Source: a virus
DNA length: 12,623 nt
Direction: 5' to 3' (one strand)
Virus genome (UHGV): UHGV-0265509
The notes beneath the pieces are model-generated. The model was not told the origin of the DNA, ran no database searches, and saw nothing but the letters and a program-made list of their open reading frames with translations. Positions 2,679-8,794 of this stretch are shown here, piece after piece. The position numbers and the translations under genes were made by a program. Each line of letters opens with the position of its first letter. Positions within the stretch are counted from its first letter, which is position 1.

Positions 2679-3200
2679 CTACGGGTTAAAAGGTAACGGC
2701 TTGCAATCCCGCTTCTTCAACTCTTCTACTAACTCAGATAATGTACACCAACGTTTAAATTTGTTGTTGGCTTTAAAGTGACTGAGAATCTCCTCTACAC
2801 GCTCAATCGACCACTTCCCTTTACCCACGTTATCTAAATCTTTACGTAGCGAGAGCGTCTCAATGGTAAACGCTAACTCCGATGTGTCCGAGTGGTCGTA
2901 CAGTAGTCTTACTGGTGCAGATTGGTGAAGTGTAACACGCCACCCTGATTCCTTAGCCCAGTAAACATCTTTAATTCGACCACCGACGTCAATTACGGAA
3001 CTGATATAGCTCCACTCCTTTTCCAGTTTGTTCTCTTCAGCAGTTAATGCTTCTTCTAATCGTAAAGAATTAGGGGACGGAATCCACCAACCGTACTTAC
3101 CGTAATAATCATCTATTACAGTAATACCTTCGTAATACAGATATTGAGTTTTTGTATTAACGAATATTTCATCGCCAATTAAGACAGCGTTTATCTTCAT
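2679..3200 (-). CDS. hypothetical protein (173 aa)
   Basis: ATG at 3198-3200 in ATGA overlap with the upstream gene stop; uninterrupted ORF; function not recognisable. Confidence 0.55.
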   Translation of the reverse strand: MKINAVLIGDEIFVNTKTQYLYYEGITVIDDYYGKYGWWIPSPNSLRLEEALTAEENKLEKEWSYISSVIDVGGRIKDVYWAKESGWRVTLHQSAPVRLLYDHSDTSELAFTIETLSLRKDLDNVGKGKWSIERVEEILSHFKANNKFKRWCTLSELVEELKKRDCKPLPFNP

Positions 3201-3685
3201 CGTAAGTGCTTCCTGTAGAATAAGTCATACGCCTCCGATGTGGCGGTATCAATAGATCCTACTAAGGGAATAATATTCTTTTCGCTTATACCTGATGCCC
3301 AGGCCGCACGAGCAAAAGCTTGACCCGAACCCGTTGCCCAAACCGTGTTTTTATTCAGTACACGAGATTCAAATTTACCCTCTAGCAGTCCGAGCCAGTG
3401 TGTTTCCTCAGCTGTGTAAATGATAATCTGATCGTAAAACTGTTCTTTTTCGATAAGATCTTTAAATAACCCTTCAATCTTGGCTCGCTTTTCTTCAATC
3501 AAATATTTTTCTACTGCGACCATTATCGTATTTTTCCAGAGATCCGAGTCCAATACGCGTTCCCCAGTATAAACAACGAATTTGTTTTTGTACTTGTGTA
3601 ATTTAGGTGCCGCTTTAACTGTACCGCCGTAGTCAACCAACCGATCGGCTAAAATGTAATCGTTTGTTACTAAAACTGTTGTCAT
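3197..3685 (-). CDS. hypothetical protein (162 aa); possible HslV/proteasome-beta-like Ntn hydrolase
   Basis: Start taken at the internal ATG (3683-3685) preceded by GAGGTG SD and lying just downstream of a terminator, not the GTG at 3799 of the ORF track. N-terminus MTTVLVTNDY resembles HslV MTTIVSV (Thr nucleophile after Met removal); later TGSGQAFARAAWA resembles the HslV IGSGGPYAQAAARAL segment. Similarity judged by eye only. Confidence 0.4.
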   Translation of the reverse strand: MTTVLVTNDYILADRLVDYGGTVKAAPKLHKYKNKFVVYTGERVLDSDLWKNTIMVAVEKYLIEEKRAKIEGLFKDLIEKEQFYDQIIIYTAEETHWLGLLEGKFESRVLNKNTVWATGSGQAFARAAWASGISEKNIIPLVGSIDTATSEAYDLFYRKHLR

Positions 3686-3696
3686 CACACACCTCG

Positions 3697-3736
3697 AAGA
3701 AAAATAAAAGTACCCTCTCTCCGTTAGGAGAGAGGG
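3697..3736 (-). terminator. rho-independent terminator
   Basis: Perfect 10-bp stem CCCTCTCTCC / GGAGAGAGGG (3713-3722 and 3727-3736) with a 4-nt loop, followed on the transcribed (minus) strand by the U-rich tract UACUUUUAUUUUUCUU; lies directly after the stop of gene 3744..4013. Confidence 0.8.
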
Positions 3737-3743
3737 GCACTGC

Positions 3744-4013
3744 TTAAATCTTACGACTGCTACCGTAGCAGCCACGACCTGCTGTCGTTTTCGCAGCACT
3801 GACAGGTGCTAACGCAGCCATCGTACCATCGGTCTTAACAATGTGTAAGTTACTTACGCGAGCCAGACCTTTAAAGGTAATCTTCACACCCTTGCGTAAA
3901 CTCTTCACATCGTAACCGTCGAGTTTGAGTGTTTTGATTTTCTCAGGCTTACCTTCTTCGTAATAAGAAAGAACATTACCCGCACGTTTCTCAACAATGT
4001 AAATCTTAGCCAT
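3744..4013 (-). CDS. hypothetical small Lys-rich protein (89 aa), own promoter and terminator
   Basis: ATG at 4011-4013 with SD GGAG 9 nt upstream; sigma70-like promoter upstream and strong terminator immediately downstream; function not recognisable. Confidence 0.55.
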   Translation of the reverse strand: MAKIYIVEKRAGNVLSYYEEGKPEKIKTLKLDGYDVKSLRKGVKITFKGLARVSNLHIVKTDGTMAALAPVSAAKTTAGRGCYGSSRKI

Positions 4014-4036
4014 TTTAGATTACTCCATTTAGTTAA

Positions 4037-4050
4037 GTGAGAATTCTCAC
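4037..4050. promoter_or_regulatory. perfect 14-bp palindrome GTGAGAATTCTCAC, candidate operator
   Basis: Perfect palindrome located between the predicted -10 hexamer and the SD of gene 3744..4013, i.e. around the expected transcription start. Confidence 0.3.
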
Positions 4051-4058
4051 ATAGATGA

Positions 4059-4087
4059 AATATATCTTAAGTTTTTTAGACTGTCAT
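4059..4087 (-). promoter_or_regulatory. sigma70-like promoter for gene 3744..4013
   Basis: On the minus strand: -35 ATGACA (plus 4082-4087), 17-nt spacer, -10 TATATT (plus 4059-4064). Sequence-only prediction. Confidence 0.35.
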
Positions 4088-4743: not shown

Positions 4744-4785
4744 CGTAAAAATAAATTCTCCCTCTCTCCAAACGGAGAGAGGGAA
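4744..4785 (-). terminator. rho-independent terminator (same stem sequence as the 3713-3736 hairpin)
   Basis: 12-bp stem containing the identical CCCTCTCTCC / GGAGAGAGGG core (4760-4769 and 4774-4783), loop AAAC, followed on the minus strand by AAUUUAUUUUUACG; directly after the stop of gene 4789..5295. Confidence 0.8.
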
Positions 4786-4788
4786 GGT

Positions 4789-5295
4789 TTACAGTACGTT
4801 TTCTTCGCGATCGTCTACTAACACAGAAGTAATCACATAACGCGCTAAGCGACTACGTGCTTCTTCCGTTTCTTCTTCAGAAGGTAGCTGTTCGCCCGCA
4901 GGCGCACACAACGTTAGCCCAGACTCACGAAGCTGTTCGGCATAGTCTTCTACGGCTGTGTCGAACGTACCACGAATACCTGCTACCGCATCCATAATTT
5001 CGTCATTCGGAATAATGGATTCTTTTAGCACAGCGTGAGCATCTGTAGGCTCCACCATTTGCAGGTTCTGTTCTACCAGCAATGCCTGTTTCGCTAAGCT
5101 GTCGGTGATAAAGCAAGACAGAATCTTTTCGAAATCGTCTAACGAGAATTCGGTGTCTTCAGATGCCCCGGTAATCAATTGCCCGTAGCGATTAAAGAAT
5201 TCTTTACAACGTGTTTCGTAGTCAGCTTCTAAGTCGCGAACGCCGAGATCAAAATCGTGCTGCTCCAGCTGATTAAAATCCAGAGTCTCTTTCAT
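4789..5295 (-). CDS. strongly acidic hypothetical protein (168 aa); candidate DNA-mimic/anti-restriction protein
   Basis: ATG at 5293-5295 with SD GGAGA; by hand count roughly 39 Asp+Glu against roughly 14 Lys+Arg, including a C-terminal SEEETEEA tract; last gene of the Dam operon before the terminator. Function inferred only from composition and context. Confidence 0.55.
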   Translation of the reverse strand: MKETLDFNQLEQHDFDLGVRDLEADYETRCKEFFNRYGQLITGASEDTEFSLDDFEKILSCFITDSLAKQALLVEQNLQMVEPTDAHAVLKESIIPNDEIMDAVAGIRGTFDTAVEDYAEQLRESGLTLCAPAGEQLPSEEETEEARSRLARYVITSVLVDDREENVL

Positions 5296-6344: not shown

Positions 6345-7159
6345 TAGAGCACTCCCAGTAATTCAGTCACCGTTTTCCGAGCAGCGCCAGACGCACCCAT
6401 ATAGCGACCGACCTCAATACTGCGCCACTCAAAACCGTAATAAATTTCTCGGGTGAGCAGGGTGTCTGCATTTGACAACACGACACTGTTGCCACGTTCC
6501 ACCTGCTGCTGTAGTAACTTGGCTAATTCTCGATGATCCGTTTGTGAGAATTCTTTACGGTGGTATTGCGCATGTTTCGCGGTATCCGATAACGGAATAT
6601 ACGGAGGATCAGCATAAATCACAGCATCCTCAGGCGTCCGCGCTAATACGGAACGAAAGTCTTCACAAACAATTTCCAGATAATCAACTTCTGCGCAACG
6701 TTTAGCCCAATCCCGAATTTCTTCTAACGGATAATAAACCCCATTCGGGTAACGTCCAAACGGAACATTGAACCCACCGCTACCGTTATAACGACACATC
6801 CCGTTATAACCGTGACGCATTAAGTATAAAAACATCGCTGCCCGTTCAACTTCTGACATTGTTTTACCGCTATTAAACAGCTCACGACGCTCCATATACT
6901 TTACAGTGGTATTACCGTCTAAGAACAACGGCTGCGACGCAGCGATCAGTTCTTCAGGCTGTTCACGCGCAACGCAAAGTAAGCGTATCAAATCAGGGTT
7001 AGAATCCGATAAAATATACCGGCTGTAATTCGTATTTAGGAAAACAGACCCTGCACCCACAAACGGTTCTACAAAGGTTGTACGTTTAGGTAAGACCTTT
7101 TGTAATTCCCCTAAAACACGTGTTTTCCCACCCATCCACTTAATAATTGGTTTCCGCAT
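6344..7159 (-). CDS. dam: DNA adenine methyltransferase, Dam family (GATC N6-adenine MTase)
   Basis: 271 aa, near-colinear with E. coli Dam by eye: N-terminal KWMGGK (Dam KWAGGK), AdoMet-binding FVEPFVGAGSVFLNT, LYLMRHGYNGMCRYN...FNVPFGRY, catalytic DPPY, C-terminal RKTVTELL. ATG at 7157-7159. Confidence 0.9.
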   Translation of the reverse strand: MRKPIIKWMGGKTRVLGELQKVLPKRTTFVEPFVGAGSVFLNTNYSRYILSDSNPDLIRLLCVAREQPEELIAASQPLFLDGNTTVKYMERRELFNSGKTMSEVERAAMFLYLMRHGYNGMCRYNGSGGFNVPFGRYPNGVYYPLEEIRDWAKRCAEVDYLEIVCEDFRSVLARTPEDAVIYADPPYIPLSDTAKHAQYHRKEFSQTDHRELAKLLQQQVERGNSVVLSNADTLLTREIYYGFEWRSIEVGRYMGASGAARKTVTELLGVL

Positions 7160-8185: not shown

Positions 8186-8220
8186 TAAAAACAAAAAAGA
8201 ATGGGGAACCGAAGTTCCCC
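8186..8220 (-). terminator. rho-independent terminator
   Basis: 7-bp GC-rich stem GGGGAAC / GTTCCCC (8203-8209 and 8214-8220); the RNA loop is UUCG, followed by AUUCUUUUUUGUUUUU on the minus strand. Confidence 0.8.
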
Positions 8221-8319
8221 TATATTAGTTAGCCGAACAGTCCCTCATCAAAATTCAAAGTGGGGGCTTCATGTAGTATTTCCATTGCCATGATTTTTAC
8301 TCCCGAAACGGTTCTTCAA

Positions 8320-8676
8320 TTAATCTCTGAAACCCAATGTTTGTTTAAACACGTTGCTGAGGTATCTCGGTTTTACTGTATTGATGTAATCTATAGCTGA
8401 CTCTGCAGTCACTTTAACCACACAGCGGCCGTTAGTGGACTCAAAGGTCACGCTGTATTTCAAACGCAACATGTCAGCAACTTTCATTATCGTCCCCAGC
8501 CCTAAACGTTCTGCGTGCTCGTTCTTAATTGAAGAAATAACTGACGGCGAAACTCTTGCTAGTTGAGCTATCTCACGTTGGGTAATTTTACCGCTCACCA
8601 AATGTCGAATGATGTAGCCTAGACGAATAACTAACTGTTCTTTTGCAATGGTGATGGTATTATGTTTATACGCCAT
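8320..8676 (-). CDS. XRE/Cro-CI family helix-turn-helix transcriptional regulator (118 aa)
   Basis: Start taken at ATG 8674-8676 (SD AGGA) rather than the GTG at 8730. HTH signature ITQREIAQLARVSPSVISSIKNEH is typical of XRE-family repressors. Confidence 0.6.
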   Translation of the reverse strand: MAYKHNTITIAKEQLVIRLGYIIRHLVSGKITQREIAQLARVSPSVISSIKNEHAERLGLGTIMKVADMLRLKYSVTFESTNGRCVVKVTAESAIDYINTVKPRYLSNVFKQTLGFRD

Positions 8677-8709
8677 GGTATCTAATCCTAATCTGTAAAC
8701 GTGTCGTAA

Positions 8710-8728
8710 GAGATTATATTGTAATCTC
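8710..8728. promoter_or_regulatory. inverted repeat GAGATTA-N5-TAATCTC overlapping a consensus -10 (TATAAT, minus strand, plus 8713-8718); candidate autoregulatory operator/promoter of the XRE gene
   Basis: 7-bp arms at 8710-8716 and 8722-8728; perfect TATAAT on the minus strand inside the repeat; the -35 is weak (ATGTTA). About 35 nt upstream of the XRE start. Confidence 0.3.
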
Positions 8729-8745
8729 ACTAAGGTAACATCTAT

Positions 8746-8789
8746 CTGAGAAAAAATAAAATATAGGTACCACCGTTGGGTGGTACCTA
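8746..8789 (-). terminator. rho-independent terminator
   Basis: 11-bp stem (8764-8774 and 8779-8789, core GGTACCACC / GGTGGTACC), loop of 4 nt, followed on the minus strand by UAUAUUUUAUUUUUUCUC; directly after the stop of the kinase gene. Confidence 0.8.
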
Positions 8790-8794
8790 AGCGG

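Follow-up and report, generated by a model that had tools for sequence, protein, structure and literature searches.

Does the short gene at positions 4013-3744 of the uncultured phage genome UHGV-0265509, which is preceded by sigma70-like hexamers and a perfect palindrome and followed by a strong terminator, form a unit transcribed by the host RNA polymerase under the control of a repressor, or is it expressed by the transcription machinery of the phage itself? To answer this question, we compared the window (the whole stretch of 12,623 nucleotides analyzed here, to which all positions refer) with the genomes of related phages. The reading that we favor, with a probability of about 0.6, is that the cassette is a jumbo-phage expression unit that consists of a lineage-specific promoter, presumably recognized by the virion RNA polymerase, a hairpin at the 5' end of the mRNA, and a terminator.

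The window is part of an uncultured jumbo phage of ~222 kb and shares synteny with the genomes of Salmonella phage SPN3US and of the Erwinia phages Asesino and phiEaH2. Its Dam methylase shows 67-72% identity to the counterparts from these three phages, with a syntenic gene order. Megablast comparison of 2 kb of the window with 50,697 phage records yielded no match, the relatives being detectable at the protein level only; NZ_CP173450.1 is the complete genome of a relative from the window's own clade. Judging from these sequence relationships, the phage is a Chimalliviridae-type, nucleus-forming jumbo phage related to SPN3US, Asesino and phiEaH2. These three phages encode their own virion and non-virion RNA polymerases, and in Chimalliviridae the early genes are transcribed within a vesicle by the virion RNA polymerase, which in SPN3US is a five-subunit enzyme packaged in the virions (PMC5694885). 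The ~222-kb clade is represented in assemblies of Salmonella, Shigella and E. coli, and was in one case filed as a RefSeq "plasmid".

Layout and conservation of the cassette

The cassette and two further sites in the window consist of the following features:

4087-4082 and 4064-4059, minus strand: sigma70-like hexamers ATGACA and TATATT with a 17-nt spacer (10/12 match)
4081-4051, minus strand: phage-specific promoter, with a T/A-tract, a 12-mer core and a downstream TCTAT
4050-4037, minus strand: perfect 14-bp palindrome GTGAGAATTCTCAC
4026-4023, minus strand: Shine-Dalgarno sequence GGAG, 9 nt ahead of the ATG at 4013
4013-3744, minus strand: 89-aa open reading frame (89 codons), homolog of SPN3US gp112
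3741-3700, minus strand: intrinsic terminator, with the stem-loop at 3741-3709, its core at 3736-3713 and the tail UUUUAUUUUU
4785-4747, minus strand: twin terminator, with the stem CCCTCTCTCC/GGAGAGAGGG identical to that of the cassette terminator
8761-8710, minus strand: second copy of the phage promoter with a hairpin, ahead of the XRE gene (8676-8320)

All elements listed in the original prediction, i.e. the hexamers, the palindrome, the Shine-Dalgarno sequence, the 89-aa gene and the terminator, are present on the minus strand as described, and the notion of a unit that combines a promoter and a 5' inverted repeat with a single small gene and a strong terminator is borne out. Taken singly, these elements are weak against chance; we judge them to be real because they are conserved. 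The layout of the unit is kept in the window's clade, SPN3US, pEa_SNUABM_29 and Asesino; phiEaH2 differs in having one additional gene between the promoter and the gp112 homolog. At the nucleotide level, the 68 nt from GTCTAAAAAA through to the ATG show 0-1 differences in four relatives. In L008, the most distant of the four, 45 of the 270 positions of the coding sequence differ from the window, as do 14 of the 29 nt that precede the conserved block and include the '-35'. The unit had also been thought to be insulated, which does not hold on either side: there is no terminator between the stop codon of the upstream gene (4089-4087) and the promoter, and no recognizable promoter between the cassette terminator and the following gene (ATG at 3685).

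A lineage-specific promoter motif

The lineage-specific promoter has the consensus T..AAAA..TTTC-AGATA[G/T]AT[A/G]TTA-YCTnnGTGAG. At the cassette, it consists of the upstream tract GTCTAAAAAACTTA with an A-run at 4077-4072, the core AGATATATTTCA at 4067-4056 (also referred to by AGATATAT) and the downstream TCTATGTGAG; the core is located 43 nt from the ATG, on the same strand as the gene. With its 12-mer core of the form AGATA[G/T]AT[A/G]TTA and the flanking tracts, this promoter belongs to the SPN3US/Erskinevirus-type class. The cassette core differs at 2 positions from AGATATATATTA and at 1 position from the variant AGATATATTTTA, which is found ahead of the phiEaH2 and Asesino XRE genes as well as at two further sites in the clade genome. 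When scored with a 54-nt position weight matrix (PWM) trained on SPN3US, the cassette promoter, with 2-3 mismatches in the core relative to the consensus, is the weaker of the two copies in the window (23.8 bits, vs. 47.6 bits for the second copy with the core AGATAGATGTTA at 8747-8736); in L007, L008 and NZ_CP173450.1, the score is 31-32 bits. The promoter block is 100% identical in L005-L008 except for one C/T change.

The cassette promoter and the second copy, with cores starting at 4067 and 8747, are the only PWM matches of at least 5 bits in the 25 kb of strands of the window, and a shuffled 222-kb genome contained no match of at least 15 bits. SPN3US has 25 matches, 24 of them on the gene strand and all just upstream of genes, among others the non-virion RNA polymerase (nvRNAP) gene SPN3US_0034 and the XRE gene; no copy was found ahead of any annotated virion structural gene in this phage. 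In NZ_CP173450.1, all matches (20/20) are on the gene strand, at sites orthologous to those of SPN3US. Many copies are located directly 3' of a terminator, so that transcription has to be re-initiated there. The motif is found ahead of the gp112 homolog in SPN3US, pEa_SNUABM_29 and Asesino, and ahead of the one inserted gene in phiEaH2. Scanning IMG/VR with a 22-nt degenerate motif identified 33 sites, and, with two exceptions, the stretches that contain them are part of jumbo-phage contigs of 150-248 kb; the bare 14-mer TCAGATAGATGTTA gave chance matches only, among the matches listed. A literature text search with the motif strings found no phage paper.

Every jumbo phage that encodes RNA polymerases is reported to have a conserved AT-rich motif of ~10 nt, centered near position -10, upstream of early operons (PMC7598289), and 32 copies of the early promoter motif have been mapped in phiKZ (PMC10914365). 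Like the early promoters of phiKZ and AR9, the motif described here has an AT-rich conserved core of ~10-12 nt, is present in a few dozen copies per genome, is co-oriented with non-structural genes and is independent of the host sigma70 consensus. Unlike those promoters, it has a lineage-specific sequence, AGATA[G/T]AT[A/G]TTA with T..AAAA..TTTC and YCTnnGTGAG flanks and, in the SPN3US lineage, is frequently coupled to a downstream hairpin, a feature on which the papers examined are silent. Because of the parallel with phiKZ and AR9, and because one copy lies directly before the nvRNAP gene SPN3US_0034, we infer that the cassette promoter is used early by the virion RNA polymerase; the identity of the polymerase, the time of expression and the start site are all assigned by analogy with phiKZ and AR9.

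Promoter-proximal hairpins

The perfect 14-bp palindrome GTGAGAATTCTCAC at 4050-4037 is indeed located between the '-10' and the Shine-Dalgarno sequence, and contains an EcoRI site (GAATTC). In RNA, it is predicted to form a GUGAG-AAUU-CUCAC stem-loop with a 5-bp stem and a 4-nt loop (-5.9 kcal/mol, z = -3.5), which leaves the Shine-Dalgarno GGAG outside and not sequestered. Comparison with Rfam gave one match only, at chance level.

Hairpins starting with GTGAGA or GAGA follow other copies of the phage promoter as well. In the window, the second copy lies directly after a terminator and is followed by the hairpin GAGATTA-CAATA-TAATCTC (8728-8710, -5.8 kcal/mol) and the XRE gene (8676-8320), behind which there is another terminator (8220-8203). 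The orthologous XRE promoters of SPN3US, phiEaH2 and Asesino have hairpins with compensatory differences (GAGATTA/TAATCTC vs. GAGAGTT/AACTCTC), and at a different promoter within the same clade (L150), the hairpin GTGAGAGT-TCAGTT-ACTCTCAC is followed by TTAAC. More than 10 different stems are found among paralogous promoter copies, the pairing being kept while the sequence varies. Compensatory differences are also observed at the orthologous cassette site, with GAGAA/TTCTC in the window and a 7-bp stem, GAGGAAT/ATTCCTC, in Asesino. The orthologous gp112 promoter of SPN3US has no hairpin, and in pEa_SNUABM_29 there is just a weak candidate of 4-5 bp that overlaps the Shine-Dalgarno sequence, so the hairpin is optional.

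A perfect stem of 7 bp or more is present at 7 of the 23 SPN3US copies, compared to 0.87% of random positions (p = 8 × 10−10), and the folding energy is -5 kcal/mol or better for 26 of the 31 copies from IMG/VR. The folding energy of the 23 SPN3US sites was better than that of shuffles of the same segments (p = 0.0006), and its mean was not better than that of random genomic 34-mers (p = 0.10). The inverted repeats differ among the promoter copies in arm sequence, arm length and loop size, with the centre-to-centre spacing ranging from ~8 to 14 bp; this variability fits an RNA structure rather than the site of one DNA-binding protein. Given that the palindrome occupies the usual position of these hairpins and that their stems are non-homologous, it is most likely a 5'-terminal mRNA stem-loop and not an operator.

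The least improbable of the alternatives, which we still consider unlikely, is that the inverted repeat acts in the DNA as a component of the phage promoter or of the region transcribed first, either as a cruciform or hairpin that aids the phage polymerase in melting or recognizing the promoter or as the site of a phage transcription factor. The linkage between repeats and promoter is tight and the distance between them is fixed, the GTGAG portion is itself conserved, and, according to work cited in PMC5694885, the N4 virion RNA polymerase uses DNA-hairpin promoters. However, about half of the promoter copies, including that of gp112 in SPN3US, have no stable repeat, so initiation cannot depend on it; there is wide variation in stem length and loop size; and the jumbo-phage polymerases are multisubunit enzymes unrelated to that of N4 (PMC7598289).

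It is improbable, too, that the palindrome as such is without function and is a chance palindrome around an EcoRI site within a conserved 5' untranslated region. The window contains 3 perfect 14-bp palindromes, one of the others, at 5193, likewise being centered on GAATTC, against an expectation of 0.85 per shuffled window, and 55% of the shuffles contain at least one. Furthermore, the four closest relatives are invariant here, and therefore there is no covariation at the cassette palindrome itself. Against a chance origin, the spacing between the promoter core and the start of the palindrome equals that seen for the hairpins at other copies, its arms GTGAGA...TCTCAC and the following TTAAC recur in the longer L150 hairpin, and the orthologous Asesino site has the different 7-bp stem given above.

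The sigma70-like hexamers and the operator

The hexamers ATGACA and TATATT exist, match the sigma70 consensus at 10 of 12 positions with the optimal 17-nt spacing, within the 16-18 nt expected of such promoters, and are the best sigma70-like match in the window. Sigma70-like sites were not enriched in the window (15 vs. 19.4 ± 4.2 in shuffles), none of the 23 phage-promoter copies of SPN3US qualified by the same criteria, and the upstream regions of the three gp112 orthologs (SPN3US, Asesino and pEa_SNUABM_29) were devoid of sigma70-like sites on the strand of the gene. The '-35' ATGACA is not part of the conserved block, relatives having TTAACG or TTAACT in its place, and TATATT coincides with the core of the phage-specific motif. 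Thus, a sigma70-type promoter is not supported; we judge that the hexamers overlap the phage promoter by coincidence, the '-35' being incidental. Nevertheless, the 10/12 match is present in the window's clade and could confer some degree of activity with the host polymerase.

A host sigma70 promoter regulated by a repressor that binds to the palindrome, such as the product of the XRE gene at 8676-8320, is accordingly a very unlikely explanation. The arrangement does resemble the lac and lambda type of promoter and operator, with a perfect palindrome between a -10 hexamer and the Shine-Dalgarno sequence; an XRE-family helix-turn-helix protein is encoded only 4.3 kb away, and the promoter of its gene also has an inverted repeat beginning with GTGAGA. 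In contrast to the lac and lambda type, the -35 hexamer is not conserved, the promoter class is not sigma70-like, and the palindromes of sister promoters share neither sequence nor spacing with one another. Only GTGAG(A) is common to the copies, because it is part of the promoter consensus, and the 3' arms and spacings differ at every copy; hence, one dimeric helix-turn-helix protein could not bind all these repeats, and the proposed operator finds no support. Moreover, phiKZ-type phages transcribe their genes independently of the host RNA polymerase and enclose their DNA (PMC7598289, PMC10914365).

Terminators and the encoded protein

The strong terminator predicted directly after the 89-aa gene was confirmed: the 10-bp stem CCCTCTCTCC/GGAGAGAGGG (3736-3713) is followed by a U-run, and the stem can be extended to 3741-3709 (-23.3 kcal/mol, z = -5.5). 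A scan detected a terminator at the corresponding position in SPN3US, Asesino and pEa_SNUABM_29, and a comparable stem with a T-run was found there by eye in phiEaH2; thus, the position of the terminator is conserved between the phages, the stem sequences being different. Together with 3700-3736, the twin terminator at 4785-4747 makes up a direct repeat of 37 nt, and the two bound a three-gene segment that ends with the cassette. Conserved terminators of phiKZ have the form BCCYCCCC-loop-GGGRRGG followed by TTAT (PMC10914365). The terminators of the window resemble them in the C-rich 5' arm, the G-rich 3' arm, the 4-nt loop, the TTTAT in the tail and the recurrence of near-identical copies in the genome (those starting at 3736 and 4785 share the stem), but differ in the stem sequence, which is CCCTCTCTCC/GGAGAGAGGG.

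In the homology and structure searches proposed for the 89-aa protein, it proved homologous to SPN3US gp112, Asesino gp127 and phrog_12339; there was no sequence similarity in Pfam, NCBIfam or PDB and no significant match in Foldseek. A search of its profile against 1.84 billion representatives returned only 10 matches. The protein is very basic (pI 10.0); residues 1-70 make up a small OB-like beta-barrel, and the tail, residues 75-89, is disordered. No RNP-type motifs were identified, and SPN3US gp112, for which the mutant 64_112(am27) exists, is a non-virion protein (PMC5105663). We compared it with small nucleic-acid-binding proteins of the OB-fold or cold-shock-like kind and with the enterobacterial beta-barrel connectors PmrD and IraM, from all of which it differs in lacking any such database similarity. 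Most plausibly, this protein binds nucleic acid. The suggestion of a dosage-sensitive product, such as a regulator, inhibitor or toxin, receives no support from these properties. The phiKZ early ribosome-binding protein gp014 was rejected as an analog, having more than 260 residues compared to 89. There is a slim chance that the 5' hairpin starting with GUGAGA tags the early transcripts made by the virion RNA polymerase in SPN3US-like nucleus-forming phages, for a phage factor involved in their export from the early vesicle or the nucleus, their selective translation or their protection from host RNases, and that this RNA-binding factor is the basic OB-like gp112-family protein, which would itself be produced from a transcript of this kind.

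Discussion

The conserved motif could, least probably of all, be an RNA-processing site at which an endonuclease produces a hairpin-capped 5' end: such processed ends are stable and, as the upstream gene of this cassette is not followed by a terminator, the motif would be included in read-through RNA, but many copies immediately follow strong terminators, which leaves little RNA to process, and the AT-rich motif with its upstream A-tract matches the early promoter class of jumbo phages (PMC7598289).

Under the favored reading, a phage-specific expression unit, transcription would start at the lineage-specific promoter at 4081-4051, read early in infection by the injected virion RNA polymerase and not by the host sigma70 polymerase, the '-10' of the original prediction being the AT-rich core of the phage motif. 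A start ~10 nt past the core would place the palindrome at the 5' end of the mRNA, where it could fold into the GUGAG-AAUU-CUCAC stem-loop and would most likely protect the transcript from 5'-end-dependent decay by RNase E and RppH in the enterobacterial host. Enterobacterial mRNAs are known to be stabilized by 5'-terminal stem-loops, for example, the hairpin in the ompA 5' untranslated region. The cassette resembles these stabilizers in that a short hairpin is located at or near the putative mRNA 5' end, the Shine-Dalgarno sequence is free downstream, and the pairing is conserved while the sequence is variable; it differs in that the stem is only 5 bp long and in that the 5'-end placement depends on the putative start site. 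The terminator would then release a short monocistronic mRNA, expected to be stable and abundant, that encodes the very basic, non-virion 89-aa protein with its OB-like barrel and flexible tail. The downstream genes may be fed by limited read-through of the terminator or by middle or late promoters.

The cassette is an ordinary case of a known type of system, and the current understanding of that type is unchanged. The case shows how, when the sequence alone is read, the promoter of a jumbo phage can be mistaken for the combination of a host sigma70 promoter and an operator. The PWM combined with the hairpin rule provides a usable promoter model for SPN3US-like phages of enterobacteria, including the uncultured ~222-kb clade. 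Cassettes with such a promoter, hairpin and terminator mark the few genes that are presumably expressed first and at a high level, here those for the gp112-family protein and the XRE regulator; functional studies of host takeover could sensibly begin with these two genes.

Cassette layout and conservation

All elements that the original prediction had listed for this locus (hexamers, palindrome, Shine-Dalgarno, 89-codon ORF and terminator) are present on the minus strand of the window:

4087-4082, minus: ATGACA, "-35"-like hexamer, with a 17-nt spacer to TATATT
4064-4059, minus: TATATT, "-10"-like hexamer
4050-4037, minus: perfect palindrome GTGAGAATTCTCAC
4026-4023, minus: GGAG Shine-Dalgarno, 9 nt ahead of the ATG at 4013
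4013-3744, minus: 89-codon ORF
3736-3713, minus: terminator core stem CCCTCTCTCC/GGAGAGAGGG, then UUUUAUUUUU

The terminator has a folding energy of -23.3 kcal/mol (z = -5.5), and the palindrome, folded as RNA (GUGAG-AAUU-CUCAC), one of -5.9 kcal/mol (z = -3.5). Judged alone, promoter and palindrome are each within chance expectation: the window contains 15 sigma70-like sites vs. 19.4 +/- 4.2 in shuffles, and 3 perfect 14-bp palindromes vs. 0.85 expected, with at least one in 55% of shuffles. The further perfect 14-bp palindromes, TAAAGAATTCTTTA and AAAACACGTGTTTT, lie in coding DNA (window 5193-5206 and 7113-7126), the former centred, as in the cassette, around an EcoRI site.

Conservation shows these elements to be functional. 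Between the start of GTCTAAAAAA and the ATG, a stretch of 68 nt, four close IMG/VR relatives (protein identity 85-97%) have 0-1 differences. In L008, the farthest of the four, 45 of the 270 coding positions are changed (25 codons synonymously, 13 non-synonymously), as are 14 of the 29 positions farther upstream, including the "-35".

Relationship to jumbo phages

A nucleotide search with 2 kb of the window against 50,697 phage records gave no match. At the protein level, synteny links the window to Salmonella phage SPN3US (Seoulvirus) and to the Erwinia phages pEa_SNUABM_29, phiEaH2 and Asesino (Erskinevirus): the genes run in the same order, from thymidylate kinase through the XRE regulator, GNAT, Dam and others to the homologue of gp112, which is the 89-aa gene, and the Dam methylases are 67-72% identical. 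These relatives are jumbo phages of the phiKZ kind; they form a nucleus, package a multisubunit virion RNA polymerase, in SPN3US gp42/218/240/241/244 (PMC5694885), and have a second, non-virion one. Transcription in phiKZ does not need the host RNA polymerase (PMC7598289, PMC10914365), and in Chimalliviridae the virion enzyme transcribes the injected DNA inside a vesicle, before nucleus formation.

The window's own clade is uncultured; its representatives are contigs of 220-228 kb, some metagenomic and others in Salmonella or Shigella assemblies. Assemblies of Shigella flexneri and Salmonella also give their names to members of its protein family. NZ_CP173450.1, a complete circular clade genome of 221,873 bp, is 94.8% identical over the cassette gene. 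It is deposited in RefSeq as 'plasmid p98232-contig_4' of E. coli strain 98232, a human urine isolate. Together with the Shigella and Salmonella names, this suggests a carrier state, pseudolysogeny or a co-sequenced phage.

A probable phage-specific promoter

SPN3US, pEa_SNUABM_29 and Asesino share the motif TTCAGATAGATGTTATT ahead of their gp112 homologues; phiEaH2 has it too, but with one inserted gene between motif and homologue. In the window, the same 12-mer, AGATAGATGTTA, has a single occurrence, at 8747-8736, ahead of the XRE gene. Across the SPN3US genome, the family consensus is T..AAAA..TTTC AGATA[G/T]AT[A/G]TTA YCTnnGTGAG.

A weight matrix (PWM) built from 21 SPN3US copies detects 25 sites in that genome, 24 on the gene strand and all just upstream of genes, among them the XRE gene, gp112 and SPN3US_0034, an RNA polymerase gene outside the five virion subunits and therefore nvRNAP; none of the annotated virion structural genes of SPN3US is preceded by a site. 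In the window, exactly two matches reach at least 5 bits, at 4067 (the cassette, 23.8 bits) and at 8747 (47.6 bits). NZ_CP173450.1 has 20 matches of at least 15 bits, 20/20 on the gene strand, compared to 0 in the shuffled genome, and sites orthologous to those of SPN3US accompany the XRE, gp112, nvRNAP beta and lysin genes, the gp22 homologue (a doubled promoter) and the position after the capsid gene. When 2.9 million IMG/VR contigs were scanned with a 22-nt degenerate motif, 33 sites were found, all but two of the stretches in jumbo-phage contigs of 150-248 kb. Many motif copies lie directly 3' of a terminator, so that transcription must restart there.

The sigma70-type promoter proposed originally is not supported by this comparison. 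In its favour is a match to the consensus at 10/12 positions; however, TATATT falls within the phage promoter core AGATATATTTCA, the conserved block starts at the upstream tract of the phage motif, and ATGACA lies outside it and is TTAACG or TTAACT in relatives. By the criteria of the window scan, 0/23 SPN3US copies are sigma70-like, and upstream of the orthologous gene in SPN3US, Asesino and pEa_SNUABM_29 the gene strand has no such site. The match is thus apparently coincidental, combining the clade's core variant with a fortuitous hexamer, although the cassette promoter may have some adventitious host-polymerase activity.

Every jumbo phage encoding an RNA polymerase is reported to have a conserved AT-rich motif of ~10 nt, centred near -10 of early operons and read by the virion RNA polymerase (PMC7598289). 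The AT-rich, conserved motif described here fits this class, and by analogy we infer that the promoter would be an early one, read by the virion enzyme; a literature search for a transcript map of the SPN3US-like lineage found none.

A second 5'UTR motif, AATCGACTATTA, often extended as AATCTAAAGGAG, follows the strongest promoter-plus-hairpin copies, usually 10-15 nt before the Shine-Dalgarno (for example at SPN3US record positions 65413, 94239, 113986 and 223277, in L129-L133; also L003: 565; L004: 784), and has no evident counterpart in the cassette of the window. At 8546 (minus) of NZ_CP173450.1, a promoter copy of 24.6 bits is followed by a very stable hairpin, GGGGCTGAA...TTCAGCCCC (-16.8 kcal/mol). 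Since the nearest gene annotated after it is ~350 nt away, the copy may drive a small non-coding RNA or a small gene missed in annotation.

The palindrome as a probable 5' hairpin

The palindrome begins 6 nt past the 12-mer, where the family consensus is GTGAG and where many promoter copies carry an inverted repeat. Perfect stems of 7 bp or more, with loops of 3-9 nt and a start no more than 8 nt away, were found in 7/23 SPN3US copies vs. 0.87% of random positions (p = 8e-10), and about half of the copies have a stem when imperfect ones are included. Among distinct IMG/VR copies, 26/31 fold at -5 kcal/mol or better, in a scan that demanded GTGAG, and so selects a hairpin-prone subclass, but not the complementary 3' arm.

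The arms vary (for example AGATGAG, TGATAGA, GAGAGTT, AGAGTTAA, GTGAGATG, AGCGTTA, GAGATTAC, GTGAGAGT), as do the loops, from 3 to 9 nt. Compensatory differences separate window GAGAA/TTCTC from Asesino GAGGAAT/ATTCCTC at the gp112 site, and window GAGATTA/TAATCTC from SPN3US GAGAGTT/AACTCTC at the XRE site. Another promoter of the clade carries GTGAGAGT-TCAGTT-ACTCTCAC, a longer version of the cassette's GTGAGA-AT-TCTCAC, both then followed by TTAAC. Because pairing is kept while the sequences are unrelated and the geometry variable, the palindrome most likely acts as an RNA structure rather than as the operator of one repressor, as had been proposed. It is possible that it works at the DNA level, or that it has no role.

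If transcription starts ~10 nt from the motif centre, the mRNA would begin with the hairpin as a cap, whose most likely role, by analogy, would be to shield the message from decay that depends on its 5' end in the enterobacterial host. Stem-loops at 5' ends, such as that of ompA, can protect against such decay. The Shine-Dalgarno stays unpaired in the predicted fold. The hairpin is optional, given that the SPN3US gp112 promoter lacks one and that pEa_SNUABM_29 has only a weak 4-5-bp candidate overlapping its Shine-Dalgarno.

Terminators and insulation

At the same position, the terminator scan identified terminators with different stems in SPN3US, pEa_SNUABM_29 and Asesino, and a comparable stem with a T-run is seen by eye in phiEaH2. 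The C-rich/G-rich arms and TTTAT tail of the cassette terminator resemble the conserved phiKZ class (PMC10914365). Related features of the window are:

4785-4758, minus: twin terminator with an identical 10-bp stem
8203-8794, minus: XRE cassette, with terminator 8789-8764, promoter, hairpin, gene and terminator in this order
8747-8736, minus: XRE promoter core, a strong copy
8728-8710, minus: XRE hairpin GAGATTA-CAATA-TAATCTC
8676-8320, minus: XRE gene, single
8220-8203: XRE terminator, also scoring on the plus strand

The cassette terminator and its twin make up a direct repeat of 37 nt (window 3700-3736 and 4747-4783, 78% identical) bracketing a 1,047-bp three-gene segment of which the cassette is the end; no promoter of the recognised class was found after the upstream copy. 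The proposed insulation holds at the 3' end only, since no terminator was found between the upstream gene's stop (4089-4087) and the cassette promoter. Nor was a phage-class promoter found between the cassette terminator and the next gene (ATG 3685), so that downstream genes rely on read-through or on middle/late promoters, which cannot be recognised by sequence (PMC7598289). That next gene (3197-3685, minus), starting just 27 nt past the terminator's U-run, weakly matches an HslV-family peptidase among the PHROGs (phrog_1040, E = 2e-6). As the XRE gene shares the layout, the single-gene cassette is a recurring design in this phage.

The 89-aa protein

The protein belongs to phrog_12339 (E = 3e-16; labelled unknown function) and is 36-42% identical to the aligned members of the SPN3US group. 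The gp112 family is narrow: its profile matched 10 of the 1.84 billion representative proteins searched. SPN3US gp112 is not among the virion proteins, and its sole mutant also carries a gp64 amber mutation (PMC5105663). The window protein is basic (pI 10.0; 18 K+R vs. 7 D+E); AlphaFold2, from 14 sequences, predicts a confident six-stranded beta domain at residues 1-70 (pLDDT about 88-91) and a disordered tail, and Foldseek with this fold had no significant match in the PDB and, in BFVD, none outside the protein's own family. Our best guess is a candidate nucleic-acid-binding protein, made early and in quantity; it may instead bind a host protein, and the toxin-like product suggested initially gains no support from any analysis of the protein.

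Distant homologues P0045, P0047, P0049 and P0050 share a C-terminal motif, G-A-T-P-x-G-S-x-L-R-K/G-Y, resembling GRGCYGSSRKI of the window protein (window 3744-3780) and absent from SPN3US gp112; the tip of the tail could serve as a docking peptide. Two other observations concern the family: in two homologues the domain is duplicated in tandem, and P0041 (90 aa; Salmonella phages SPFM15 and SPFM5) has the gp112 sequence as 20-residue blocks in reverse order, probably an artefact of the deposited sequence, since reversing the order of 60-nt record lines gives such blocks.

The proposal of a self-contained single-gene unit is supported; the sigma70/operator/repressor mechanism is not. In the cassette, the gene for a small, basic and lineage-specific protein is preceded by an early-type promoter of jumbo phages and a predicted 5' hairpin, and followed by an intrinsic terminator.
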